Shown here one piece after another: positions 35,510 to 57,696 of a stretch of DNA of 64,000 bases; positions within the stretch are counted from its first letter, which is position 1, and every line of letters begins with the position of its first letter. This DNA comes from Terriglobia bacterium. Its GTDB lineage: Bacteria; Acidobacteriota; UBA6911. The stretch is taken from assembly GCA_020072565.1 (NCBI GenBank), contig JAIQGI010000014.1, positions 16,327-80,326 on the forward strand, given 5' to 3'. The translations under genes and the position numbers were made by a program. Below the pieces are notes generated by a model. That model saw only the letters and a list, made by a program, of their open reading frames with translations. It did no database searches and was not told the origin of the DNA.

Positions 35510-36142
35510 CCGCTATTTGTGCCGAACCTTCGGCTCTGAACCGCATTTGTGCCAACATTCCGACGATTCTGGTTCAACCTCTCCTGCATCCTGGATTCAT
35601 TCAAAACCCATAAGCGTCCGCCGCAAGCAGACAGCGGCTTCCTTCAAGTGGTCGTTATCGGAAATGCCTCGGCAACTTCTCTTTGCTCGTATCCCATCGT
35701 TTTCTGCGCCGAGGCATTTCCGATGAACGCTAACAACTATACGCTCGCAATAATTACTTTGTATTGAAGCCTTTGGCTCAAGCACTTGGATAATAAGCCG
35801 TTATGAGGACGAAAAGCTGAAATCTATGAAACCATCTTTGCCGACGGATTTGTGTTTCTTTTCCTTCTAAAAACCTCTCCTCTGTTGGCCGACATGAGCG
35901 GAAATTTCTGCGCTGATGCCGGATATCTGGGGATATGAATTCAGCTTTTCAAAGGACATGCCGAATATGTTGCTCATCGTCTGTTTTGACTTCAGTCCTC
36001 CGTCAGGATAGATTATCTTCAAGTTCCTCGAATGAAGTGCGGACGCGGATGTTGATAGCGGATGTAAATGTCCATGGCGACACAGACCCGTACCATCTGT
36101 GTGCAATGTGAAGCATTACTTTGCTGACCAGACGACCGGAAT

Positions 36143-45444: not shown

Positions 45445-45586
45445 TTCATGTTCTGCGGGTACTCACGTGCCGGGAGAACAAAAAACGATATACGAATCCA
45501 TGATTGCCGTTCGTCCTTACCTCCGTCCGACCACGCCGGAAGTTCGAGGGCGTCGGGTCGGCGGAGGTGAAGGGACGTCCAGATAG

Positions 45587-45898
45587 GTGACCTTCGATGA
45601 AGTCCGTTTGATGTTATCGGTACTGGATGTTCGGGAACAGCTAATTTCGAGGCTCGCGGTACTTGCCGGGAGGAGGAGTTCCCTTCCGAGGTTGAGGGCG
45701 GTTGGACGGGCGTGGGCAAACTTCCAAGTCATGCGGAGGACCCACAGTTCTCTGTCGAAGGAGCTTGACGTCGATCCGCATATCCGGGCGGAGCAAATGG
45801 GGCATAGCGTCGATGTAAACGAGAACGTTTATACGATTACTTCGATCCACCGCCGCAAGGAAGCCGTCAATGCCCTCGATTCGGTGATTGAGGCTTAA
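45587..45898 (+). pseudogene. remnant C-terminal fragment of a tyrosine integrase
   Basis: Only ~100 aa are retained, with a catalytic-core-like segment (RAVGRAWANFQVMRRTHSSLSKELDVDPHIRAEQMGHSVDVNENVYT; HxxR...GH...Y). No N-terminal domains are present upstream. The fragment ends 44 nt from the tRNA-Gly 3' end. Confidence 0.5.
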
Positions 45899-45942
45899 TG
45901 GACTCTACGAATTCGGGGTGTCTGTAACTCGTTGAAAAGATT

Positions 45943-46017
<75 letters not shown>

Positions 46018-46205
46018 GCGATAACTATTGATATATCTATGCTTTAGCGTTTCATTAAATTTTCGTGCAACAAATGTACAACAGAATATTCCCCTCTGTC
46101 GTTTGGGCTTGTTGTACCGTGTTTGAGTCGCGCTTCAGCATGAGCGTACTTTACTTTTTGTTGCAGATTTTCGCAAGCGGTAATGCCTTCAGGTGGAGAT
46201 CGCCT

Positions 46206-46532
46206 TTATCGAACGATTTTCGAAAAATCTGCATAGTGCTGCCTGATAAACTTCACCATTGATCGCAAGGCCAGATCGGGATGAACCCTGTCAAGGGTAG
46301 GTTGTCTGACGTGATAGGACTGTAATGTACCGTTCTCTTTTATCTGCCACACGAGAACGCTTGATGATTCCTTCCCGGGACGTTTGATTGCTTCCAGCCG
46401 GAACTTCCTGGACCCACCTTTGGCCTCTAGCTGAAACCCGATTGTTCGAACCACCTCGTACGGTTCCGTGATCGCGTCTTCTGTGGACTTGAAGAGTTCT
46501 CCAAGCGTTCGCTCATGCTCTTGTTTTTTCAT
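46206..46532 (-). CDS. hypothetical protein
   Basis: The 108-aa ORF has a good SD (aaggag) 7 nt upstream of its ATG. Confidence 0.45.
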   Translation of the reverse strand: MKKQEHERTLGELFKSTEDAITEPYEVVRTIGFQLEAKGGSRKFRLEAIKRPGKESSSVLVWQIKENGTLQSYHVRQPTLDRVHPDLALRSMVKFIRQHYADFSKIVR

Positions 46533-46725
46533 GCCCTGCTCCTTTGAGGTCCGATGGGGTCTGATTCTATCACAATGCAGCCTTCGCCCTCGAAAACTCT
46601 GCTCTGTAGAGGCTCAGGTTGAACGATCGCCCTTCGAGCGGGCAGCGATGTATGACCGAAATCCGCGTCCCCAGCGCTGCTCACGTCGGGGGCCAGGTTG
46701 CCTAATGTGGCGTTTGCCGCATCCG

Positions 46726-46771
46726 TTCCAGCGGGCCCAGTCACCGAAGACTGAGCCCGCTGGAATTTTTT
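46726..46771 (+). terminator. strong plus-strand Rho-independent terminator inside the minus-strand element
   Basis: The stem ttccagcgggc and gcccgctggaa (11 bp) has an inner pair cagtc/gactg and a 6-nt loop, and is followed by TTTTTT (46766-46771). Confidence 0.55.
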
Positions 46772-47062
46772 GCCGCAGGCCCGGCCGGAGGGGGTGCCTC
46801 ATGACCCTGCGCTTATGCGCAGCCAGGCCCACGGTGCCCGGTGACTGCAGCCGGGCGGTTTGGCTTAAGCGATAGCCGCTGGCGAATCTGTTGCGCCTTC
46901 GGCAATCGCCCGGCGAAACTGAAAAACCATGAGTCCGTCCGGGCGCTTAACGCCTGCGATCAGTTCCCAGCCCAGGGCGCCCAACGGATTGAGGTCTGCC
47001 ATCTCGTCCAAAACCTCGAAACGATATTCCCACTTCATTTCGTGCCTCCTGTTGTTTGACTA

Positions 47063-47623
47063 CTACATTTGGCCAAGAGCCGCCGCAAGGACCCGATCAA
47101 AACGGTAAAACGGCATTGAGACGGATTCCGATTCCTCGAGGCGCTCGATCCACTTGGTGATTGTCAAAATGATTTCAGTTGGATCCTCGCACGCCTCGCA
47201 CTGCCGGAGCACCGCTGCCAGTTCGGTTCTCAATTCCGAGTTCTCCGGGAGTTGAGCACACACGGCGCCAACAACGTTGCCAAAGGAGCCACAAACCGCG
47301 CTCAACGCGCGATGGAGCTTGTCCTTCGTTGCCCGCAGCTGCGGCACAAGATCCGCCGTCAACGCGTCACGACGGGCAATAGCCGCCTCGAGCTCCGCCT
47401 TATGAACCGCGTCGCGTTCGGCCCAAAGTTCTTCACAAACCTGGCGGGAATAACTGCCGTCTTTGGCGAGGCGTAGCGATTCCAGCTGCTCAGCTTCGCG
47501 TTGCGCCTCGTGCCACTTGGGCCGAATCGCAGCAAATTCGCGCTGCAGGTCCGCTCGCACTTTTTGAAGTTCCCTCACCTTGGCAATCCATTTTTTCGCC
47601 TCGTCCTTTTTTGCAAATAGCAT
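47063..47623 (-). CDS. hypothetical coiled-coil protein
   Basis: The 186-aa ORF is highly charged and helical, with no known motif. Confidence 0.4.
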   Translation of the reverse strand: MLFAKKDEAKKWIAKVRELQKVRADLQREFAAIRPKWHEAQREAEQLESLRLAKDGSYSRQVCEELWAERDAVHKAELEAAIARRDALTADLVPQLRATKDKLHRALSAVCGSFGNVVGAVCAQLPENSELRTELAAVLRQCEACEDPTEIILTITKWIERLEESESVSMPFYRFDRVLAAALGQM

Positions 47624-47633
47624 TTCATCTCCT

Positions 47634-47885
47634 TTAGCGGTCTCGATACCGCCGCTGCAACCATTGTTCGTTCATCGCCCGTTGCCGTTCCGCATCTAAC
47701 GTCAGGCCCCGGTGAAATTCGACTTGCGCTTTTGCTGCACGAAAGATTTGCTTAGCCTCATGCGCCTTACGCCAGCGCGCAAACGGTGCCGCATAAAGCC
47801 GGGTGATGCGCAGCCAAAGCGCGCGGACCTGATTTCGAATTTTTCGGCGCAGCCCCCTCAGGCGCATATTCCCCTCCCATACCAC
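47634..47885 (-). CDS. hypothetical small basic protein
   Basis: The 83-aa ORF is Arg-rich. Support is weak. Confidence 0.25.
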   Translation of the reverse strand: MVWEGNMRLRGLRRKIRNQVRALWLRITRLYAAPFARWRKAHEAKQIFRAAKAQVEFHRGLTLDAERQRAMNEQWLQRRYRDR

Positions 47886-48418
47886 TCAACCCATGCTGCC
47901 TCCGGCCAAAACAACCGATCTATTGTTTGCGCCGAAATGACAACACGCCAAGTGGGGCCCGTTTGCGTGCGGCAGAGGCTTTCCAGATGTGCACCGATTC
48001 TCTGAACGCGCGGCCAATTATCACGAATCATTACTCCGGCCCGTGCGAGAATTTCGTCCAGGTCGAGATGAATTCCGACGGTTCCGCAAAGTTGTATCCG
48101 CGACCCCAGATTGACTGCGTCGGTTTGCTCGGGATCGGGATCCATAAAATCCCAGGTGGGAGACACAACCCCGCGCAGGTGGCGATCGGCACAGAGTCTC
48201 ACTTGGATCATCACCGCAGGCAGACCAACGAGTTCAGCCACGACATAGTGTCCAGCCTCGTGAAAACTCACTCCGGCGATCGAATCGGCCTCTGGAGCGG
48301 TTTCGTAAAAAATTTGTTCCGCCCAGGGCCCGCCGCAATCGATGAGCGCGCGGCCTTGCGCTTCCCTGAGAAGTTCCGCTTTTGCATTGGCGAGTTGTGC
48401 CTCTAGGGTTTCCGTCAT
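47858..48418 (-). CDS. putative zinc metallopeptidase (HEAGH motif)
   Basis: The 186-aa product contains SFHEAGHYVVAELVG, a HExxH motif in an FtsH/ImmA-like context. Confidence 0.45.
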   Translation of the reverse strand: MTETLEAQLANAKAELLREAQGRALIDCGGPWAEQIFYETAPEADSIAGVSFHEAGHYVVAELVGLPAVMIQVRLCADRHLRGVVSPTWDFMDPDPEQTDAVNLGSRIQLCGTVGIHLDLDEILARAGVMIRDNWPRVQRIGAHLESLCRTQTGPTWRVVISAQTIDRLFWPEAAWVEWYGRGICA

Positions 48419-48663
48419 GCGTTCACCTGGCTCAGGAAATAGGCGCCAAGCGCGTATACCTTGGCACTGTCTGCAAAAGTTTCGCTGTCCAGCTCTGAGT
48501 TAATCAACCCGACTTCTCTTTTCAAGCGGGTGTACTCCGCTTCGGCATCAGGAGTGAATGCACCCGCCGCGCGAGCGTCGGCCAGCAGCTCATGCGCCCG
48601 ACAAAGTTTTTTCGTTTTTTCCTGCCTCAGTTGTCTCTCTTCAAGCAATAGATTTCGCATTTC
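48415..48663 (-). CDS. hypothetical protein
   Basis: The ORF is trimmed to the internal Met MRNLLLEERQ to avoid overlap with the terminase gene. The product is coiled-coil. Confidence 0.3.
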   Translation of the reverse strand, partial: EMRNLLLEERQLRQEKTKKLCRAHELLADARAAGAFTPDAEAEYTRLKREVGLINSELDSETFADSAKVYALGAYFLSQVNA

Positions 48664-48712
48664 AGTTCCCCTTTCCGAAGTCGAAGTTAGTAAACATGAC
48701 CCCTCCTCATTG

Positions 48713-50656
48713 TCAGCGATTAAGCCAGCCGCCCCGCCCGGGATCGCCGAGCCAGCCCCGTGTTCTCTCGCCCAAAAAGGACTCATTGCGCTCGCGATTT
48801 AACGCCAGGCCGAGCCGTGCTTTTTCATCTGGATCCTGACTTGCGGCGGTCAACTCTTTGGATCTCAAGGCGTCCATCCTGTCCGCGTGCGCGTTCAGCT
48901 TTATCCCGGACATGTGGAGGCTTTGGAGCGCAGCGAAGTTGTAGCACGCAACGTCCAGGACTTCATTTCGTACTCCCGGCGCTTTGAACCACTCCCGGAC
49001 CGCAAAGCCTTTCGAGTATCGGACCCTCACCGTCTCGCTTGTGAGCTGCTCGAAAAAGCTACGATCTGCCGTCATCGGAAAGTGCATAAAGCCCGGACCC
49101 GGATCGAGAATCCTCAAATGGCTTGCGATCCAATCTTTGCAGGGGTCAACGCCCACAATGAACATGGGGCTTTTATCCTTCCCGCGGCCCGCTCTCCGCG
49201 GCCAAACGGGATGACGCCCGGCTTGGCCCTTGATGGCATAGACGCGCCGGCGAAGCCTATCCCGAGTGAACTGATAGACGGCCGCGGTTGCATATCCCGA
49301 GTCAACGCAGCACGCAGAGATCAGGAGTTTCGCGCCGAATTCGTGCGTAAATTCCGAGGTCAGAATCCGGTCAAGGTCTCGCCAAACCTCCGGCCGCATC
49401 GGATCGCCGCGGATGATGTTGTATTGGATCTGCCAGCACTCTTCATCACGCCCCCAGCCAAAAACGCCAACCTCGAGGCGATCCGTTTGGACGTCCACGC
49501 CCGCGGTCAAAAGCGCCACCCCTGCCGGCAGCGTCGCGCCAAATGGCTCCCGTCTCGACAAGAGGAGTTCGACGTCGAGCTTTTCCGAATGTGGTTCCTC
49601 CCAGGATTCCGCCAGGACTGTGTTGATAAAAACTCGGAGACGTTCCGGGCTCTTACTCGCTCTGATGAAATTGGCGGCCAACTTCGGCCAGGTCGTCCAT
49701 GGGGAAGCCAGGGCGTTAATGTGAAACCCAGCCGCCCGGCCTTCCCCCGGTGATTCCGCCCGCCATTCCCCGCGCTCCAGCATAGCCGGCTTGTGTCGGT
49801 CCTCGATTTTGCCGTTGCACAACTCACATTTGTAAAAGGCCTCTGCCGGCTTCCCTTGCGGCCATTCAACGCCGCTCCATTTCAGCGTCTGAAATCCCTG
49901 GCAATGCGGACATGGAACCCAATATTGGCGTTTGTCGCTTTCCTTGTACGCGGCCTCGATCCGGGACACGCCCTTTACCGTTGGAGTGGAGATCATGCAG
50001 ATTTTGCGATTGGCAAACGTCTCGCTGCGTGCGATTGCCAAATCACAAGGGTCGCCCTCAGCTACCGATCCGCCTTCAGCGCCGGCCGCGCCCATCGCGC
50101 TCGCGGGGTAGGCGTCCACTTCGTCAAGGATGATGTAACGCGCCGGCATGCTGCGAAGCCCTGCCGCGCTGTTTGCTCCGCAAAACGCAGCATATCCGCC
50201 AGGAAACGATTTTGTCTGAATGGTATTGTCAGCGGCGCGCGTCTCGGTCCTGCAGATGCGGTCTCGGAGCTCGGGCGTAGTTTGGATCAGTGATGTAACG
50301 CGCTGCTTTGAAAAACGTGCGGCCAATTCGACCGTGGGCTGGACCAGAAGCGCTGGGCCAGGTGCAAGGTGAATGACGAGCCCCAGCAGGTTTAGAAGCG
50401 CCTCAGATCCGCCGATCTGTGAAGGCTTAACGAACACGGTTCGCTCGCTACCACCATTCGGGCTCATGCTGTCCATTACTTCGCGCATGAACGGGACTCT
50501 GGAAGTCCGCCATTTGCCGGGCTCGCCGGCCGAAGTGTGGCTCAGGATTCGATAGCGATCCGCCCATTCAGAAACCGTCAACAGCGGTTCCGGCCGGATT
50601 GCGCGGGCCACAATTCCCCGGATTTCATTTGCCTTCGAGAGCGTCGGCGAGTCCAT
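48713..50656 (-). CDS. phage terminase large subunit, GpA family
   Basis: The 647-aa product has an N-terminal ATPase (TVFVKPSQIGGSEALLNLLG; Walker B ARYIILDEVDAYP) and a Cys cluster (CPHCQGFQ...CELCNG) typical of lambda-GpA-like terminases. A C-terminal nuclease-like region follows. Confidence 0.7.
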   Translation of the reverse strand: MDSPTLSKANEIRGIVARAIRPEPLLTVSEWADRYRILSHTSAGEPGKWRTSRVPFMREVMDSMSPNGGSERTVFVKPSQIGGSEALLNLLGLVIHLAPGPALLVQPTVELAARFSKQRVTSLIQTTPELRDRICRTETRAADNTIQTKSFPGGYAAFCGANSAAGLRSMPARYIILDEVDAYPASAMGAAGAEGGSVAEGDPCDLAIARSETFANRKICMISTPTVKGVSRIEAAYKESDKRQYWVPCPHCQGFQTLKWSGVEWPQGKPAEAFYKCELCNGKIEDRHKPAMLERGEWRAESPGEGRAAGFHINALASPWTTWPKLAANFIRASKSPERLRVFINTVLAESWEEPHSEKLDVELLLSRREPFGATLPAGVALLTAGVDVQTDRLEVGVFGWGRDEECWQIQYNIIRGDPMRPEVWRDLDRILTSEFTHEFGAKLLISACCVDSGYATAAVYQFTRDRLRRRVYAIKGQAGRHPVWPRRAGRGKDKSPMFIVGVDPCKDWIASHLRILDPGPGFMHFPMTADRSFFEQLTSETVRVRYSKGFAVREWFKAPGVRNEVLDVACYNFAALQSLHMSGIKLNAHADRMDALRSKELTAASQDPDEKARLGLALNRERNESFLGERTRGWLGDPGRGGWLNR

Positions 50657-51101
50657 TTAAGTGTCCGAGAATTTCCGTTGATAAAAGTTGACGCACCTTT
50701 GCCGGATCCGTTTCGATCGCCAGCGGAGCAGACAGCCGCTCTGGAATCGTCAAGAGTCCGTCTTTGTGCTGCGCGAAAATGTTAGTCAGGGTGTTCTTGA
50801 CCGTGGCTTGTTCGATCAGCTCGCTTGCCTTCTGGAGAAACTCCAGCCGGCGAAGTTTGGCAAGGAAGGTTTCCTTCATGAAAACGGCCTCGTTGTAATT
50901 TTTGGGGTCGCACCCTTCTTCAAATCCCTGCTCCATCCGGTCAAGAATGGCATCCGATGCAGCAACGTCGATGCGGCCATTCTTCAAAACGAGGAGTCTT
51001 TTTTGTTTCCACTTGGTGACGGCACTCGGAGTCACGCCGCGGTGCCCCGCGTATTCCTTCGCCGTCTCCATGGTTGGATTTTTAAGCCTTGTCTTTTTCA
51101 T
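50625..51101 (-). CDS. HTH DNA-binding protein, possible terminase small subunit
   Basis: An N-terminal HTH-like segment (KEYAGHRGVTPSAVTKWKQKRLL) is present. The call as a terminase small subunit is a positional inference from the ORF lying directly upstream of, and overlapping, terL. Confidence 0.35.
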   Translation of the reverse strand: MKKTRLKNPTMETAKEYAGHRGVTPSAVTKWKQKRLLVLKNGRIDVAASDAILDRMEQGFEEGCDPKNYNEAVFMKETFLAKLRRLEFLQKASELIEQATVKNTLTNIFAQHKDGLLTIPERLSAPLAIETDPAKVRQLLSTEILGHLNGLADALEGK

Positions 51102-51224
51102 CGAGCCTCACCGGATTTTCCGATTTCCTGGGTTTCGGACCCCTTCGCCTCGGGAAGTTGTGCCACACATTCCACCCGAGGGCGCTTGGCCTCCAGTAGG
51201 ACCCAAGCCTTGCCCCTGCAACAG

Positions 51225-51401
51225 TTAGCGCCTATCATCTTTTCGCCCTTCCTTGGCCACGATGCGCGAGCCAGCCCCGAAGGCCCGCAGCACAAGTTCA
51301 ACGCGATTCTGAAAGCGTTGGCCAGGAGTGCGCCGCACTCTTACTTTCAGCCGGCGGATCCGCGGCTTCTGGTCCTCAAGCAGTGTCGGTTGCGGGTTCA
51401 T
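51225..51401 (-). CDS. small basic hypothetical protein
   Basis: The 58-aa ORF has a GGAGG SD 7 nt upstream of its ATG. It is translationally coupled (ATGA) to the upstream small ORF. Confidence 0.35.
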   Translation of the reverse strand: MNPQPTLLEDQKPRIRRLKVRVRRTPGQRFQNRVELVLRAFGAGSRIVAKEGRKDDRR

Positions 51402-51598
51402 TGCTTGGCCTCCGTGACCACTACCGGCCAGGTCATGCCCCAGGAATGCACGCGGCGCCACAATCGGCCCTCGGGATCGCGGAAGACAACCATCTTCGGA
51501 GTCTCCCATAGGATCTCTGCGACCTCGTGACCATCGATGACATCGGGTCTTTGAGTACCGACTAACACCCGGTTTGCAGCGTCGACGTAGCGCCCCAT
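51398..51598 (-). CDS. small hypothetical protein
   Basis: The 66-aa ORF has a GGAGAAG SD upstream of its ATG. Confidence 0.35.
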   Translation of the reverse strand: MGRYVDAANRVLVGTQRPDVIDGHEVAEILWETPKMVVFRDPEGRLWRRVHSWGMTWPVVVTEAKQ

Positions 51599-51625
51599 GT
51601 GTCACTTCTCCGTGCTTTCTGCGTA

Positions 51626-51704
51626 TCTTTCGTTTCTTTCGTAAGTCCCTGCACTGTCCAATGCAGCTCTGACAGGGGTAGCGCAGTACGAAAGAAACGA
51701 AAGA
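51626..51704. repeat. 18-bp perfect inverted repeat with tandem gaaagaaac iterons and nested hairpin (candidate replication origin)
   Basis: tctttcgtttctttcgta (51626-51643) is the reverse-complement of tacgaaagaaacgaaaga (51687-51704). The right arm contains (gaaagaaac)x2, and the spacer holds a ctgca/tgcag hairpin. The structure lies immediately downstream of the DUF3987 replication gene. Confidence 0.4.
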
Positions 51705-51710
51705 AACGAA

Positions 51711-53102
51711 CTAATCGCGCGTAGCACTATGCCCCCTCGCCCCTACGGCCAACCAGCGGACCACGGGCCGACCGGCAGTCTGTTCCGTCCTCGACACCGC
51801 GCTGCCCGTGTCAGCCAGCATCGTAAGCGCCCGGTCGATTTCGCCGGCGGACTTGTTCCGAGCAAATAACCCGGAGATCTGCGTACGACTCATCCCCTCC
51901 GCGACAGAGCGCAGGGCGCGGAGAATCTCATCCGCCACAGGATCGCCCAACTCTGCGCCGAAGACATATCGCGCGGAGGCCTCGGCATATTCCCACAGGG
52001 CCGCCGCGGCTCGGACGTGCTCACCACGGATAGCCTGCGAGAGATCCAACAAGGCATACAACATCGACAGCCTGAGCACCTGTGCCTCGGCCCGCGATGT
52101 CGCGGCACCCAAGAGCCCAGGGTGCCCTTCGGAAAGATCCGCGTAGATTTCATGCCAGACGGCGCGGCCGTCGTCAGAGCGATGCATCGGGCCGACCGCG
52201 CGGGAATGTTCCACGGCCTGCATCAGCCGCAACTGCAGCGCAGCCAGGTCCCCATCGGGTGTGCCACCATCGGGTAGGATGCGCGCGCGGCGCACGCACA
52301 GCCACAAATGCCGATTTGCGAAGCCATTGCCAAGTTCCGTCCGATCGAGATAGCGGCGCACCTCGTCGCGCGTGATGTGCCCGATGATTGAAATGTGCGC
52401 ATCTGTGGCCCGGAGGGGATTGTTTTTCGTGGCGAGCCGCAGTTGTCCATCGTCCCAGGCCTCGCGGATCCGCGCGGACAGGGTGTTGCCCTCGCGGGCT
52501 ATGACTCGCAGCACGCTGGCATACTCAGGTTCAACGACGAGCAAGCGCTTGTCCGTGACCCCGGGATCCCGGGTAACGGTTTGGTAGTCCGTGACGCGGC
52601 CATGGTCGCGGATCGGCTCCTGCTCCTCGATCGCGTCTCGCACGAGCCATACGAGCCCCTCGCCAGAAGATAGCCCATGGTGGATGTGCTCTCGATCATA
52701 CGCTGCGTCGACCTGAGCGCAGAGCGAGCGCACCCGCCCCCAGGAGGTTCCCTTTCTGCCCTTCGCGGTGGCGCCCACCAGAACCACATACAAATTTGCC
52801 GCGTGACGGTCGCCCTCTACGAGGTAGCAAGGGCCGCGGCCGATCATGGATCCGGCCGCGACGAGCACTTGCGACAGCAGCGCCACAGGATCGGCCTCCG
52901 TGGCTGGCCCGAGGGCGCGAACTATCTCGCCAGCGAGGCCGTGGTATGCTTCAGGCGCCGGCGGTTCCGGCCATTGGGCTACGGATGGCGCCACAGCGTG
53001 CAGTGGTGGGGGCCCAGCGATCGCGGCAAGCTCGTCGCCTACCTCCGGCTCCAGGCTCTTGAGGGGATCACACTGAGGCATCGTCATGCCGCCGCCCTCC
53101 AC
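51711..53102 (-). CDS. DUF3987-like replication protein (phage/plasmid primase C-terminal-associated domain)
   Basis: The 463-aa product has an overall DUF3987 pattern. It lies directly downstream of, and overlaps, the CHC2 zinc-finger ORF. No canonical Walker A motif was seen. Confidence 0.45.
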   Translation of the reverse strand: MEGGGMTMPQCDPLKSLEPEVGDELAAIAGPPPLHAVAPSVAQWPEPPAPEAYHGLAGEIVRALGPATEADPVALLSQVLVAAGSMIGRGPCYLVEGDRHAANLYVVLVGATAKGRKGTSWGRVRSLCAQVDAAYDREHIHHGLSSGEGLVWLVRDAIEEQEPIRDHGRVTDYQTVTRDPGVTDKRLLVVEPEYASVLRVIAREGNTLSARIREAWDDGQLRLATKNNPLRATDAHISIIGHITRDEVRRYLDRTELGNGFANRHLWLCVRRARILPDGGTPDGDLAALQLRLMQAVEHSRAVGPMHRSDDGRAVWHEIYADLSEGHPGLLGAATSRAEAQVLRLSMLYALLDLSQAIRGEHVRAAAALWEYAEASARYVFGAELGDPVADEILRALRSVAEGMSRTQISGLFARNKSAGEIDRALTMLADTGSAVSRTEQTAGRPVVRWLAVGARGHSATRD

Positions 53103-53620
53103 TCACGGTAGGCGTTGATCTGTTGGCTCTCGGTTCCAATGTCAATCTGGTCGAGCAGGTACTCCACCTGGTCGAGACCTCGATATGCCGCAGCCAGCCA
53201 GGTCCAGGCGCGCTCATCCTGCGCATCGCGGTGCAGACGCTGCAGAGCCGCGGCCTCAAGACCGAAGCGCCCGAGATATTCGTCGCGCAGCTCGCGGCCC
53301 AGTTCACGGGCCCAGGTTTGTAGACCTTCCTTGATCGCGCGCCGGCGGAGGATTTCAGGATCCGGCGCCGGCGGCTTTCCGGGTTCAAGGCCGAAATATT
53401 TCAATGCTGATACAAAATCGCATCCGCGAAGTTTTTGAACGAAAGCGATCTTGTCCCCATGTTCGGCACAGGCAAAGCAGTTGAAGCCCTTTTCGTCGTG
53501 GCACGAGAAGCCCGTGCTGGAGTCACAGAATGGACAGGCCCCCCGGCCGCGGCGCAAGGACTTGAGGCCCTCGCCGTGGAAGATCGAATCCCAGGTTGGC
53601 AGGTCGTGTGAGTCGATCAC
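53084..53620 (-). CDS. CHC2-type primase zinc-finger protein
   Basis: CPFCDSSTGFSCHDEKGFNCFACAEHGDKIAFV matches the DnaG/P4-alpha CHC2 zinc-ribbon pattern (CPFH.EKTPSF......HCFGCG.HG..I.F). Confidence 0.55.
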   Translation of the reverse strand: MIDSHDLPTWDSIFHGEGLKSLRRGRGACPFCDSSTGFSCHDEKGFNCFACAEHGDKIAFVQKLRGCDFVSALKYFGLEPGKPPAPDPEILRRRAIKEGLQTWARELGRELRDEYLGRFGLEAAALQRLHRDAQDERAWTWLAAAYRGLDQVEYLLDQIDIGTESQQINAYREWRAAA

Positions 53621-54195
53621 GATCGCCGCTCCGCAAGCCGTTGTTTCAAAATCTCGCAGGCCTCAGTCCATGGGGTTTCATCGGGGAGATCACTGATAAG
53701 CTCTAGTTCCGCAGCCAGCCTTATGTGGCGAAGGCCGTCTTCCACGTTCTTCTGTTGCAGGTGGTCAACCATCGTCTGCCTGGCATGAGCCTGGATCCAT
53801 GAGGGCAACGGGACCGCAACGAAGCCAGGCTCGGGAACGTAGCTGCCTTCAGGCAGCGCCAGGGTTGTGACGTCCACATAATCTTTGACCCTGTTCCAAT
53901 CGGCTCGGACTTTTTCCAGAGGGATGAGCTCGGGATGCCAGGAGATCACATTGCCGATAGCCCAGCGGGTGCGATGGGCATTGCAGACAAACCAATCTTC
54001 GTAGTACCTTTCATCGCGATCAACCTGGAACACGATCCCATCAGTGCCCGCACACCACGGGCAACCGCCGAAATAATCGGCCTTTTCTGGAATTGGAGGT
54101 TTTTCTTGCGATTCAGAATCGGTTTTTGTAGAATTCATTTGTCCATCCTTTAGGTTTTGGCCCGGTTCGCGCCGGGCCGTTTTATTTTCGGACAT
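53617..54195 (-). CDS. hypothetical protein
   Basis: The 192-aa ORF has a Cys pair (GGCPWCAG) and no assignable family. Confidence 0.4.
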   Translation of the reverse strand: MSENKTARREPGQNLKDGQMNSTKTDSESQEKPPIPEKADYFGGCPWCAGTDGIVFQVDRDERYYEDWFVCNAHRTRWAIGNVISWHPELIPLEKVRADWNRVKDYVDVTTLALPEGSYVPEPGFVAVPLPSWIQAHARQTMVDHLQQKNVEDGLRHIRLAAELELISDLPDETPWTEACEILKQRLAERRS

Positions 54196-54199
54196 GCCA

Positions 54200-54532
54200 C
54201 TACGCTCGCGCCGCGGCCGATTCAGCTTCCCACTGCGGCCGGATCCGGTTTCGCCTCAGGTACTCGTCCAGGTCTGCCTTGTCGAAATAGATTTTTTTGC
54301 CAGCGGGTTTGAAGTGTGCGATGAGGTTCTTTGACGTCAGCTGGTACAGATGGCTTTTGCTGATTTCCAGGTACTTTGCCGCGGACTCCAGATCGAACGG
54401 GCCCGCGTTCTCCGCACCAGTCCGCAGTGCCAAGCTGATGATGCGATCCAGCTTTGCTTCGATCCGGGTTATTTGCTTTTCCGTCATACTCGCGCGCCTC
54501 CTGTTAGCAAGCGCAAGTATTTCAAACATCAA
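54200..54532 (-). CDS. excisionase-family HTH DNA-binding protein
   Basis: LESAAKYLEISKSHLYQLTSKNLIAHFKPAGKKIYFDKADLDEYL fits the excisionase/AlpA-type HTH signature. Confidence 0.5.
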   Translation of the reverse strand: MMFEILALANRRRASMTEKQITRIEAKLDRIISLALRTGAENAGPFDLESAAKYLEISKSHLYQLTSKNLIAHFKPAGKKIYFDKADLDEYLRRNRIRPQWEAESAAARA

Positions 54533-54563
54533 AAAGGATAGGTATCTGAAATATAGGGCAGGC

Positions 54564-55262
54564 TTATTTCGTAGGTCGGATCAGTCTCTCCTGCAGTTTT
54601 GTTGCCGCTCTCATCCAGTCATTGGCGGGCGTACCCGAATTGTAGGCCATCTTTTTAGGTTCGAGTACGAGCAGAATTTCATCATTTTTTGCGCCAACCG
54701 CTTTTGCGTCCAGCGTGCGGAGATACTTGGCCCAATCCGGAACATGGGGTTTATCCTTGTTTTGGCCGACTTGTTTTAATCCAATCTTGAGAATTTCGAT
54801 ATGCGCCTCAAGGCTTGCGTTTGGGTCCAGCGCAAGTGCCATGGGAGCGAACACGTAATCCCCAGCCTCAATTAGATGGACCGACCAGAATCCCAGATTG
54901 CGCGGCCGCGCCACGGCCGGATTGATGAGCACTGGCATGCGATATTTTTTGACCGAGTGTTTCATGTAAACAACGAATTCCTCGCTCCCGGGATCACAAT
55001 CAAAATTTCCTGGCTCTATTGGTCCTGGTGATTCCAGGTCGGAATTTGGATTGGGTGACATCCATTCTTGGTACGTGTGTTTGCTGTACCATTCAACCGT
55101 CCTTTTGTGTTCTCGCTCCCAGTCCTGGCGGTAATCGTCACACCGGCGAAGAAATTCCCAACGCCAGAGTTCGTCCGGCAGGCTTGCCGGGTATGCCTTG
55201 CTGTTGCGCCAGTCCGGGATTCCCCAGCGACGCCGATATTGCAGATCAGTCTTTTTTGACAT
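54564..55262 (-). CDS. hypothetical protein (integrase-adjacent accessory gene)
   Basis: The 232-aa ORF is Trp-rich at its N-terminus (WRWEFLRRCDDYRQDW). Its 3' end overlaps the integrase 5' end. Confidence 0.4.
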   Translation of the reverse strand: MSKKTDLQYRRRWGIPDWRNSKAYPASLPDELWRWEFLRRCDDYRQDWEREHKRTVEWYSKHTYQEWMSPNPNSDLESPGPIEPGNFDCDPGSEEFVVYMKHSVKKYRMPVLINPAVARPRNLGFWSVHLIEAGDYVFAPMALALDPNASLEAHIEILKIGLKQVGQNKDKPHVPDWAKYLRTLDAKAVGAKNDEILLVLEPKKMAYNSGTPANDWMRAATKLQERLIRPTK

Positions 55263-56355
55263 TGGATTTTCGCTTTCCGTCGCTCAAGTTCGGTATAAGG
55301 TCAACTGCCTGTCTCTTTTTCGCGTCAACGATCTTCGCGTAAATCTCGGTTGTGCTTAGGTCCCGATGGCCCAGCAGCTTCGACATGGTGTAAATGTCCA
55401 TGCCATAGGTGAGCCCCATGGTTGCGAACGAGTGCCGCGCGGTGTGGAATGAAACGCGTTTTGCGATCCCCGCGCGCTTTACCCAGCGCTTGATTGCCTT
55501 GTCGATGCTTTGCTGCGCCGGCAGTTTGAATACCGCGTCCGGGTTTGCTTCGCCGGTGATGTTGGGCGAGTACTCCTGGCCTTTCTGCGCTCCGAGGATC
55601 TTCCCTGCCTGCCTGGATAGTGGCAACTGTTCCGGTGAGCCAGTCTTGACCATGATGAAGTCAATCGAGTAGTGCGGCCCGGCCTTGTGCACCTTGTCCC
55701 ATGTCAGGGCTCGCACATCGGAATAGCGCAGTCCGCAGAAACCGGAAAACAGGAAGGCGTCCTTGACGGCCTGGTTGCCACACTCGGTCCGCTCCAACAG
55801 TTGCAATTCCTTCAGTGTGAGAAACTCGCGCCGGTTTTCCTGCTTTTTGATCCCGATACCATCGCCGGGGTTGCGGGTCAGGATCTTGTCGTGGACGGCC
55901 TGATGCAGCGCCGTCTGGATCCGGGCCAGGTACACCCCCGCGGAGTTCTGTTTCAGTCGTGAAAGAAGGTAGTCGCGGAATGAGCGGACGTATTCCTCGG
56001 TGAGCCGGTCAAAAGAAAGAGACCCGTCCGCGAAGGCCTCCAGGTGCTGGATAGCGTTTTGCCATACCAGCTGGGTATTAGGGGCCCGCTTCGTTTCTGC
56101 GATCGTCCTGCAGTAGGCCAGGAAATCATCCTGTTGCCGCGTTGGCGAGGGGAATCCGTGCTCCCCTTGCACATGCTCGAGCCGGCGCTTTGCGAGGATG
56201 TCCCCGGCCAGCTCGCGGGTCCGCTTGTCCTGCTTTGGGTTTCCGGTGAGGTAAAGATTGAGATACTCCAGTTGCCGGCGGCCGCGGTCGTAAAAGTCCA
56301 GGTATAAGGTCCGGGTGCCGGCCGCCGTCTTGCGTTCTCGAAGGCTGATCTTCAC
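55246..56355 (-). CDS. tyrosine site-specific integrase
   Basis: The 369-aa product has N-terminal arm-binding, SAM-like and catalytic domains, with motifs LRYSDVRALTW and HTARHSFATMGLTYGMDIYTMSKLLGHRDLSTTEIYAKI. Confidence 0.8.
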   Translation of the reverse strand: MKISLRERKTAAGTRTLYLDFYDRGRRQLEYLNLYLTGNPKQDKRTRELAGDILAKRRLEHVQGEHGFPSPTRQQDDFLAYCRTIAETKRAPNTQLVWQNAIQHLEAFADGSLSFDRLTEEYVRSFRDYLLSRLKQNSAGVYLARIQTALHQAVHDKILTRNPGDGIGIKKQENRREFLTLKELQLLERTECGNQAVKDAFLFSGFCGLRYSDVRALTWDKVHKAGPHYSIDFIMVKTGSPEQLPLSRQAGKILGAQKGQEYSPNITGEANPDAVFKLPAQQSIDKAIKRWVKRAGIAKRVSFHTARHSFATMGLTYGMDIYTMSKLLGHRDLSTTEIYAKIVDAKKRQAVDLIPNLSDGKRKSNVKKD

Positions 56356-56553
56356 GATTCACCTCGATGGCGAATAACAACCGCCTTTGTATGTAATTCA
56401 CCTTAGAGAATATCACGCGTACAACAACTGTACAACAAAAATAAACAAGAACCGGCAAAAATCAGGTAAACATCCAAAAACAGGAAGGCCGTAAACACTG
56501 GCGGTTGTTACTGTTAATTGTTTATGGTTTTTCTTACTTGGGGCTGGAAAATA

Positions 56554-56574
56554 CTACCGCTGAATTACTCCCGC
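56554..56574. repeat. direct repeat of tRNA-Gly 5' end (att site of the satellite-like element)
   Basis: ctaccgctgaattactcccgc is identical to 45997-46017, the first 21 nt of tRNA-Gly (acceptor plus D-arm). An imperfect extension, gctgg...ctaccgc, also matches the 5' anticodon stem. Confidence 0.55.
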
Positions 56575-56721
56575 TCACTTCAAAGGTCTGCGTCATACTA
56601 GCGAATCGGACTTCACCAAGTCAATGGGCTCCAGAGCGCGTGCTGCCGATATCTCGTCGCGCTTCCGGTGCGTTGAACCATCCAAGACGCCCGCGCCTGC
56701 AAGGTCCGGTACGGGATTCTG

Positions 56722-57696
56722 TCAAAACATCTGGGTGCGCCAGAGGTCGTGAATGTGGATCACGCCCAAAATGTACTGCCCGGCATCGACCACGACCAGA
56801 CTGGTGATTTTCAGCTCCTCCATTTTTGCCAGCGCTGCGGTGGCTGCCTGTTCGGCGGAGATCGTCTTCGGACTTCGTGTCATGCACTCGCCCGCTTTGA
56901 GCCGAAGCGGATCGGGAGCTCGCTGCAGCAACCGCCGCAGGTCGCCGTCCGAAATCACACCCGCCAGCTTGCCGTCGGCATCCGCCACGGCGGTCATGCC
57001 GAGCTTTTTGCACGACATCTCGTAAATGACCTCACTCATCGGCGTCGCTTCGCCGACGATCGGAATCGCCTCTCCGCGGTGCATCAGTTCGCCAACCCGG
57101 AGCAGCTTCTTCCCGATGCTGCCCGCTGGATGAAAGTGAGCAAAATCTTCCAGCCGGAATCCCTTGCTCTCCATCAGCGCCATGGCCAGTGCATCTCCCA
57201 TCGCCAGAGCTGCGGCGGTACTGGTCGTAGGCGCGAGGCCGAAAGGACAGGCCTCTTCGGCAACACTCACATCCAGGTTCACTTCCGCCAAGCGCGCCAA
57301 GGTGGACCCGGGATCGCCGGATATGGCGATCAGAGGCAGCCCGAGGCGCTTCACGACATTGAGAATCTGGAGGATTTCTCCTGTTTCACCGCTCTTGGAT
57401 ACCGCCAGCACAACGTCGTTCAGGCCAAGCAGGCCCAGATCACCGTGCATGGCCTCGGCCGCATGCAGAAAGATCGCAGGCGAGCCCGTGCTGCTCAAGG
57501 TGGCTGCGATCTTCTTGCAGATGAGGCCGGACTTGCCCATGCCGGTTACGGCAATTTTCCCGGTGCAGGCAGCGGCGATCTCGACAGCGCGCACAAACGA
57601 GCTGTTCAGACGAGGCACCAGAGTGCGCACGGCTTCCGCTTCGAGTTCGAGTACGCGGATGGCGGTCGCCAGCGCAGCATCAGACATGACCTTCAT
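56722..57696 (-). CDS. kdsD: arabinose-5-phosphate isomerase (KdsD/GutQ/KpsF family)
   Basis: A SIS domain (KIAVTGMGKSG...AISKSGET) is followed by two CBS domains. Confidence 0.8.
   Translation of the reverse strand: MKVMSDAALATAIRVLELEAEAVRTLVPRLNSSFVRAVEIAAACTGKIAVTGMGKSGLICKKIAATLSSTGSPAIFLHAAEAMHGDLGLLGLNDVVLAVSKSGETGEILQILNVVKRLGLPLIAISGDPGSTLARLAEVNLDVSVAEEACPFGLAPTTSTAAALAMGDALAMALMESKGFRLEDFAHFHPAGSIGKKLLRVGELMHRGEAIPIVGEATPMSEVIYEMSCKKLGMTAVADADGKLAGVISDGDLRRLLQRAPDPLRLKAGECMTRSPKTISAEQAATAALAKMEELKITSLVVVDAGQYILGVIHIHDLWRTQMF

Follow-up and report, generated by a model that had tools for sequence, protein, structure and literature searches.

Conserved 9-bp iteron arrays that covary with a DUF3987 helicase mark a candidate replication origin in a satellite-like element of an Acidobacteriia genome

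The 64-kb stretch of contig JAIQGI010000014.1 analysed here (the window) carries what by its genes and ends is an integrated, phage-satellite-like element of 10.6 kb in an Acidobacteriia genome. The DUF3987 helicase gene of this element has at its 3' end two oppositely oriented arrays of 9-bp repeats (iterons). Their position, period and core sequence are kept across related loci, and the iterons co-evolve with two winged-helix residues of the helicase. The arrays are very probably binding sites of the C-terminal domain of the helicase, and positions 51616-51714, which span both arrays, probably function as the replication origin of the element; the origin reading is drawn by analogy with the rep-then-origin arrangement of Staphylococcus aureus pathogenicity islands (SaPIs) and other phage-inducible chromosomal islands (PICIs). 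An iteron-type origin beside its initiator gene had been proposed in an earlier, sequence-only reading of this stretch, and the conserved arrays, the covariation with the helicase and the SaPI/PICI layout lend support to that proposal.

The site was first described as a perfect 18-bp inverted repeat built from tandem 9-mers, and both features were confirmed. On the + strand, tctttcgtttctttcgta (51626-51643) and tacgaaagaaacgaaaga (51687-51704) are perfect reverse complements of 18 bp each with 43 bp between them. No longer perfect inverted repeat with a loop of at most 120 nt exists in the window, and the maximal arms in five shuffled versions of the window reached just 10-13 nt. Exact copies of CGAAAGAAA occur three times in the whole window, all within this site, and an adjoining fourth copy has one mismatch. 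The repeats extend beyond the 18-bp arms: a repeat finder gave arms of 33 nt with 82% complementarity, and with degenerate outer units included each arm comprises 27 bp (3 x 9). The array unit is a tandem 9-mer of the form RCGMMNNAA, in the window ACGAAAGAA. Two tandem RCGMMNNAA units with at most one mismatch were taken as a match to the family pattern, and such matches were found in the window at 51616-51642 and 51688-51714 and nowhere else. Read on the gene-sense strand, the order is TTAGTTCGT TTCTTTCGT TTCTTTCGT, 45 bp, ACGAAAGAA ACGAAAGAT ACGCAGAAA, with the DUF3987 stop codon in the first unit; this is the rightmost unit on the + strand, ACGAACTAA, in which the stop codon reads cta (51711-51713). 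The gene-distal array ends 17 bp ahead of the start codon of the next open reading frame (ORF), orf66. The non-coding gap between the two genes, given earlier as 110 bp, exists and measures 112 bp (51599-51710).

The conservation of the arrays was assessed in 119 related loci, which were collected with an alignment-based query; the single window protein as query gave two loci in genome contigs and none in viral contigs. A scan for tandem repeats with periods of 6-14 bp around and downstream of the DUF3987 stop codon in related loci returned 35 arrays, 32 of them with a period of 9 bp. At least three copies of a 9-mer, including a tandem pair, were present in 69 of 113 stop-codon regions, against 5 of 113 intragenic and 6 of 107 random control regions. 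The phased units of all loci yielded a single consensus, R-C-G-M-M-N-N-A-A (e.g., ACGAAATAA, GCGACCAAA, ACGACATAA and ACGAAAGAA). The family pattern was found near the stop codon in 78 of 112 loci, at a density of 4.26 per kb versus 0.09 per kb elsewhere, and this density peaked sharply within 250 bp of the DUF3987 stop codon. The sequence-only reading had allowed that the structure might not be kept in homologous elements; the 9-bp iteron arrays are kept in most of the 112 loci, and the hairpin itself is not.

The arrangement of the arrays was analysed in 66 loci (65 relatives and the window). Three units, a spacer and three inverted units constituted the commonest architecture, and 39 of the 66 loci had inverted arrays: 32 were convergent, and 7, including the window, were divergent. 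The remaining 27 were partial or irregular. Spacers ranged from 6 to 160 bp overall and were longer in the divergent loci (45-160 bp), some of which have AT-rich spacers (in L070, a GC fraction of 0.36 vs 0.63). The spacers of convergent loci cluster at 6-8, 15-19, 27-28, 40 and 48 bp (e.g., L013, L024, L038, L045 and L065), and these steps of about 10 bp suggest a fixed helical phase between the arrays. At least 12 relatives (among them L001, L018, L024, L025, L026/L027, L061, L089 and L109) have another iteron cluster, which lies at the 5' edge of the helicase core, some 1.3 kb upstream of the stop codon of the DUF3987 gene; the window has no such cluster.

To identify the protein partner of the repeats, mutual information was calculated between every protein column (463) and the 9 iteron positions in 60 non-identical loci. 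Both of the strongest pairs among these 463 x 9 combinations lie in the C-terminal winged helix. Residue 416 (Asn or His) covaries with iteron base 1 (A or G): 28 loci combine Asn with A and 31 combine His with G, with one exception (z = 55, Fisher p = 3e-16). An arginine at residue 410 covaries with base 5: Arg accompanies C or G in 18 loci, and other residues (Ser, Thr, Ala and others) accompany A in 41, again with one exception (Fisher p = 2e-14). Each of these characters changed about 14-15 times on a neighbour-joining tree built from the helicase core, and the members of a pair switched together. The other variable residues of the winged-helix domain were weakly associated with iteron bases, which argues against mere linkage of the domain and the adjacent DNA.

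Five loci had been excluded from these statistics because their arrays are at the 5' site, and the readout code was obeyed in all five. Their iterons begin with GCGAC (L008; Arg410, His416), GCGAA (L026; Ser410, His416), ACGAA (L089; Ser410, Asn416), GCGA(T/C) (L017; His410, His416) and GCGAA (L109; His410, Lys416). The window protein has Ser410 and Asn416 and its iterons begin with ACGAA, as the code predicts. The joint switching of the residue-base pairs, and their persistence in the hold-out loci, make it very probable that the helicase reads the repeats. If the code is true, an Asn416His substitution would favour GCGAAAGAA (GCGAA) sites and Ser410Arg would favour ACGACAGAA-type (ACGAC) sites.

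The structure of the helicase was examined using an AlphaFold2 model. The whole model, searched against the PDB with Foldseek, was closest to MCM helicases (E-values down to 5e-6, template-modelling score about 0.35). Residues 388-452 are modelled as a winged helix, with three helices (388-399, 406-412 and 419-431) followed by a beta hairpin (435-452), with a predicted local distance difference test score of about 90; residue 410 lies in the second helix and residue 416 in the turn before the third. A sequence search of the PDB with the family profile gave just marginal winged-helix matches. Homology to the SaPI/PICI Rep proteins was likewise not detected, as the profile search of all PDB sequences, among which the Rep1 and PriRep5 structures are expected (PMC9371898), returned only weak winged-helix matches. 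More than 6800 DUF3987 homologues were found, mostly 55-62% identical; many are fused to PrimPol, PriCT or CHC2/Toprim domains, and some are annotated with a C-terminal helix-turn-helix. A role of DUF3987 as a mobile-element helicase had been predicted earlier (PMC5862659), and a PriCT-DUF3987 protein is an oligomeric 5'-3' helicase with a primase partner that has been proposed to replicate its mobile element (PMC11724360).

Physical binding, its stoichiometry, melting of the DNA and initiation of replication as the outcome are what we infer, in the following form. The origin would consist of six 9-bp iterons directly 3' of the DUF3987 gene, in two sets of three that are oppositely oriented across a 45-bp spacer. 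After excision of the element, the helicase, presumably an oligomeric AAA+/superfamily 6 enzyme of MCM-like fold, would dock on the iterons via its C-terminal winged helix, with one winged-helix domain per 9-mer. Asn416 would read the A at iteron position 1, and a non-arginine residue at 410 would fit the A at position 5. The opposed arrays would place helicase assemblies in opposite orientation on either side of the spacer, the DNA would open at the spacer, and the adjacent CHC2 primase-like protein would prime synthesis.

The closest parallel to this arrangement is found in SaPIs and PICIs, in which a proven origin with two opposed iteron sets lies immediately 3' of rep and the iterons are read by the C-terminal winged helix of the self-loading hexameric helicase Rep (PMC9371898, PMC6092414). 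The SaPI evidence is the origin work of Ubeda et al. (2007, 2012), of which PMC9371898 gives a summary; that for Gram-negative PICIs is from PMC6092414, in which a plasmid-maintenance assay was carried out for EcCICFT073. The likeness extends to the gene order (int, alpA/xis, pri, rep, ori, then packaging genes), to the position of the origin immediately 3' of rep (in the window the proximal array overlaps the DUF3987 stop codon) and to the occurrence of two or more short iterons per side in opposed orientation (three per side in the window). It also includes a helicase initiator whose C-terminal winged helix would read the iterons, here on the computational evidence of the model and the covariation, and the joint variation of iteron sequence and Rep specificity between elements. 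The systems differ in that SaPI iterons are 5-6 bp long and present in 6-12 copies, whereas those described here are 9 bp long in a strict tandem 3+3 layout, and in that an AT-rich melting region separates the SaPI iteron sets, whereas the window spacer has a GC fraction of 0.58. Moreover, the helicase is of the DUF3987 family (superfamily 6 per the literature, and MCM-like) with no detectable match to SaPI Rep structures in the PDB, and the host is an uncultivated Acidobacteriia bacterium.

The alpha protein of satellite P4 is a primase-helicase with a C-terminal winged-helix origin-binding domain that binds short repeated sites. Its helicase is of the D5/superfamily 3 type, its iterons are octamers, and ori and crr, both of which are required, lie about 4.5 kb apart. 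P4 resembles the element in that it is an integrating satellite that carries int and a regulator of AlpA/Vis type (P4 is mentioned in PMC6092414), and the two iteron clusters about 1.3 kb apart in some relatives are reminiscent of ori and crr. However, the P4 iteron sequence is unrelated, its helicase is of D5/superfamily 3 type, and the window has a single cluster.

Helicase-loading origins are also exemplified by simian virus 40 large T antigen with its GAGGC pentamers, by the sites of papillomavirus E1 and by MCM double hexamers. They share with the arrays the use of inverted pairs of short sites to position two opposed ring helicases, with a helicase that carries an origin-binding domain, and the modelled MCM-like fold with a C-terminal winged helix adds to the likeness with MCM. 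The DNA sites are non-homologous, however, and a double hexamer would be hypothetical for the window. The DUF3987 helicase that has been tested moves 5'-3' (PMC11724360), opposite to MCM and large T antigen. That protein, AgaPH, a PriCT-DUF3987 protein of a Bacteroidota mobile element, likewise has a DUF3987 domain containing Walker A and B motifs; it forms oligomers and includes a small C-terminal domain, a primase is its partner, and it has been proposed as the replication machinery of an integrative element (PMC11724360). It differs in that no origin or DNA-sequence specificity is described for it, the word 'iteron' being absent from the paper (PMC11724360), and in that the window protein belongs to a distinct subfamily.

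In iteron plasmids (RepA of pPS10, RepE of F, pi of R6K) the winged helices of the plasmid's own initiator bind repeats beside its gene, and inverted copies can serve autoregulation (PMC4980987). Plasmid iterons, however, are direct repeats of about 17-22 bp, unlike the 9-bp inverted arrays of the window, and the plasmid Rep is a non-helicase protein with two winged helices that recruits host DnaA and DnaB (PMC4980987). Such origins include DnaA boxes and an AT-rich unwinding element as integral parts, whereas none was seen in the window; for DnaA boxes this refers to an inspection of the spacer by eye, in which the best match was 5 of 9 positions. A classical iteron plasmid origin was thus rejected on account of the 9-bp inverted units, the candidate helicase initiator and the lack of an AT-rich core.

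Several observations weigh against an origin at 51616-51714. The GC fraction of the spacer equals that of the locus (0.58), so that the window has no AT-rich core, and the search for an AT-rich unwinding element in the averaged flanks of 39 loci revealed a dip in GC fraction of just 0.05-0.07. The sequence-only reading had appealed to an AT-rich or dyad element as typical of such origins; this part of it was not borne out, as the spacer is not AT-rich and what is conserved is a set of oriented protein sites and not a dyad or hairpin. About 30% of related loci have no array near the stop codon, and the window falls in the minority, divergent class. Residues 410 and 416 lie outside the canonical recognition helix, and their direct contact with bases is only presumed. 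Finally, the arrays lie in a stretch organised like an operon, in which the next gene follows too closely to leave space for a promoter, and binding there could also, or instead, regulate read-through.

The last of these points leads to the possibility that the arrays are an operator, at which the winged helix blocks or tunes transcription into orf66 and the terminase genes, or autoregulates. The covariation between helicase and iterons would serve an operator equally well, and the arrays do lie between co-directional genes, with only about 17-30 bp, including the ribosome-binding site, before the conserved small ORF. The lack of an AT-rich core in the window would be in keeping with such a role, and autoregulation would be plausible at the second cluster, at the 5' edge of the core, that was noted in at least 12 relatives. 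However, the presumed binder is no dedicated regulator but a helicase of replicative type that often occurs as a fusion with a primase (PMC11724360); the main cluster lies at the 3' end of its own gene and not at a promoter; and the identical layout in SaPIs and PICIs is a proven origin (PMC9371898, PMC6092414). An operator is considered unlikely to account for the arrays, although the operator and origin roles are not mutually exclusive.

It is very unlikely that the inverted repeat acts as an RNA or DNA hairpin, i.e., as a terminator, attenuator or RNA-stability element of the DUF3987 transcript. When the region was folded as single strands, as the sequence-only reading had recommended for DNA, the folds were better than those of shuffled sequences (z = -3.2 for RNA, at -47.7 kcal/mol, and z = -5.0 for DNA), and inverted, pairable arrays occur in most relatives. 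Nevertheless, there is no T-run, and a scan of 51599-51725 for promoter and terminator consensus sequences was empty on both strands; an intrinsic terminator, defined by a GC stem and a T/U run, was rejected on this basis. In an Rfam scan of 45500-57000 at relaxed thresholds no family matched the site; the scan listed only the tRNA and, well under threshold, two hairpin models of miRNAs. The arrays of L001 (5+2 copies) are all in direct orientation, so no hairpin is possible there, and in L089 arms identical to those of the window (tacgaaagaaacgaaagaa, 17 bp, ttctttcgtttctttcgta) lie inside a fused ORF of 701 aa, in the linker before the helicase core. These two loci and the missing T-run disfavour the terminator that had been offered as the alternative to an origin. 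The strict 9-bp period, the RCG..AA core and the covariation with a protein would not be expected of a stem, nor would spacers that range so widely in length. The nested ctgca-N8-tgcag hairpin of the sequence-only reading is present in the spacer, but at chance level (spacer fold z = -0.01, with a stem of at least 5 bp in 25% of shuffled spacers), and was rejected as a functional part. Lambda cosB has oppositely oriented repeats around a bend site, and this likeness, together with the terS and lambda gpA-type terL genes 0.5-3 kb downstream, would be in line with a cosB- or pac-like recognition site of the element's own terminase subunits. Such a site is hardly credible here: a gpA-type TerL was found in 6 of 119 loci and a related TerS in 3 of 119, yet iterons are present in 78 of 112; the iteron bases covary with the helicase winged helix and not with any terminase; and two small genes separate the arrays from terS, directly upstream of which the intergenic stretch 51102-51224 is a better cos candidate.

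The genes downstream of the arrays were compared between loci. In 24 of the 119 loci (L012, L013, L016, L024, L036, L051, L052 and others) the arrays are followed by a small ORF with the N-terminal motif M-G-R-Y-L-D-I-A, which starts about 17-30 bp past the last iteron wherever arrays were mapped. The codons of the motif vary synonymously, which indicates conservation at the protein level, and the remainder of the protein is highly variable. A tblastn search with orf66 gave no match in the related loci; the conserved N-terminus emerged by motif search. The longest downstream ORFs fell into 55 clusters among 59. This diversity, and the rarity of the terminases noted above, indicate that the iterons belong with the helicase gene and not with packaging genes.

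Further support for a replicon comes from L090 (IMGVR_UViG_3300044960_000896), a viral contig of 9133 bp with a terminal direct overlap of 127 bp that is probably a complete circular 9-kb element. It encodes an integrase, a Terminase_4 small subunit and an 802-aa primase-helicase with iterons in the arrangement >>>(27)<<<; the helicase is the sole replication-type gene identified, and most of the ORFs have no Pfam match. The exact 18-mer ACGAAAGAAACGAAAGAA had 48 matches in viral contigs, of which L089 alone combines the inverted pair with a DUF3987 gene; the other matches look like chance or coding repeats. The perfect 19-bp inverted repeat in the interdomain linker of L089 recalls the lambda origin inside gene O.

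The subfamily of the window helicase was found almost only in metagenomes, with no close relatives in annotated phage and plasmid collections; the nearest relatives in those collections are 28-31% identical and have no annotated origin. The best-known DUF3987 protein, YfjI of Escherichia coli CP4-57, is 22% identical over 189 aa, and no RCGMMNNAA array was found downstream of yfjI. For these reasons YfjI gives no ground for regarding the origin as known. In E. coli K-12 CP4-57 (L168, 7318-7401) the yfjI stop codon is spanned by an imperfect 20-nt inverted repeat (80% complementary); this stretch is AT-rich and of low complexity and may or may not be an analogous site.

An iteron origin beside a satellite's self-loading helicase is already known as a kind of feature. 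The searchable literature yielded no origin for the DUF3987 family and no account of the 9-bp RCGMMNNAA iteron, of its 3+3 arrays or of the two-residue code. We lean slightly towards the view that they represent a widespread class of origin, used by self-loading DUF3987 helicases (superfamily 6, MCM-like) in uncultivated integrative satellites and phages. Its marks would be arrays of the 9-bp RCGMMNNAA unit, typically 3+3 and so offering six sites to a six-subunit ring, convergent spacers in steps of about 10 bp, and a two-residue code (Asn416 with A and His416 with G at base 1; Arg410 with C or G at base 5). DUF3987 helicases are among the commonest replication proteins of integrative elements and satellites, with more than 6800 matches for this subfamily by itself, and if the arrays are origins, sequence alone would suffice to annotate the replicons of thousands of uncultivated elements. 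Two amino acids would then reveal the incompatibility or specificity group, and origin specificity would be predictable and possibly reprogrammable. The 3+3 inverted layout would also provide a compact bacterial model for the placement of an MCM-like ring with winged-helix tethers on duplex DNA.

The features of the element are listed in the table below. All genes around the inverted repeat are on the - strand, and the element is bounded by a 24-nt direct repeat, the copies of which are 10,558 bp apart (the size of the element). An integrase, AlpA and a DUF3987 'primase' are the set used to define small phage satellites in the SatelliteFinder models (PMC10803314), and the small, integrative element described here has an integrase (PF00589), an HTH_17 protein (PF12728), DUF3987 (PF13148) and attachment (att) repeats. 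If the arrays are its origin, the 10.6-kb island would be self-replicating and satellite-like rather than a decaying prophage remnant. The gene for the CHC2 protein, a primase-like partner, lies directly upstream of the helicase gene. A host protein encoded beside the element matches one from an Acidobacteriia metagenome-assembled genome at 100% identity.

Features of the element and its site of integration (window coordinates)
Feature	Coordinates	Strand	Remarks
tRNA-Gly(CCC)	45942-46016	-	
att direct repeat, copy 1	45993-46016		5' 24 nt of tRNA-Gly(CCC)
Large terminase subunit, lambda gpA type	48713-50656	-	PF05876, PF20454; E ~1e-86 to 1e-91
Small terminase subunit	50625-51101	-	PHROG phrog_57, E = 5.8e-25
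58-aa basic ORF (MNPQPTLLEDQKPRIRRLKV...)	51225-51401	-	No family match
orf66	51398-51598	-	Begins MGRYVDAAN; conserved N-terminal motif
Gene-distal iteron array	51616-51642	-	ACGAAAGAA 51634-51642, ACGAAAGAT 51625-51633, ACGCAGAAA 51616-51624
Spacer between arrays	51643-51687		45 bp, GC 0.58
Gene-proximal iteron array	51688-51714	+	ACGAAAGAA 51688-51696, ACGAAAGAA 51697-51705, ACGAACTAA 51706-51714
DUF3987 helicase, 463 aa, presumed initiator (Rep)	51711-53102	-	PF13148, E = 5e-12
Predicted C-terminal winged-helix domain, residues ~385-455	51738-51950	-	AlphaFold2 model; contains S410 and N416
CHC2 (DnaG-type) zinc-ribbon protein, 178 aa	53084-53620	-	PF01807, E = 1.7e-8; TIGR01391, zinc-finger region only
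orf192	53617-54195	-	
AlpA/excisionase-type HTH_17 protein, 110 aa	54200-54532	-	PF12728, E = 5e-12
232-aa protein	54564-55262	-	
Tyrosine integrase	55246-56355	-	PF00589, PF13102, PF17293
att direct repeat, copy 2	56551-56574		23/24 identical; adjoins integrase

Beyond the terminases, several ORFs of the element have no family match, and no capsid, portal or tail families were recognised among its ORFs by Pfam or PHROG matches, which as an absence of matches is weak evidence on whether a helper phage would be needed for induction and particles. With a small and a lambda gpA-type large subunit, both within 46017-51101, the element looks like a satellite with a complete terminase of its own; the candidate cos stretch upstream of terS is 123 bp long. 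The start of the 58-aa ORF overlaps the orf66 stop codon (ATGA), which suggests translational coupling. The att repeat corresponds to the 5' end of tRNA-Gly(CCC), unlike the usual 3' end, and the integrase is at the side distant from the intact tRNA. The second-longest perfect inverted repeat of the window is located at 35657-35673 and 35708-35724, with arms of 17 bp (ATCGGAAATGCCTCGGC) and a loop of 34 nt.

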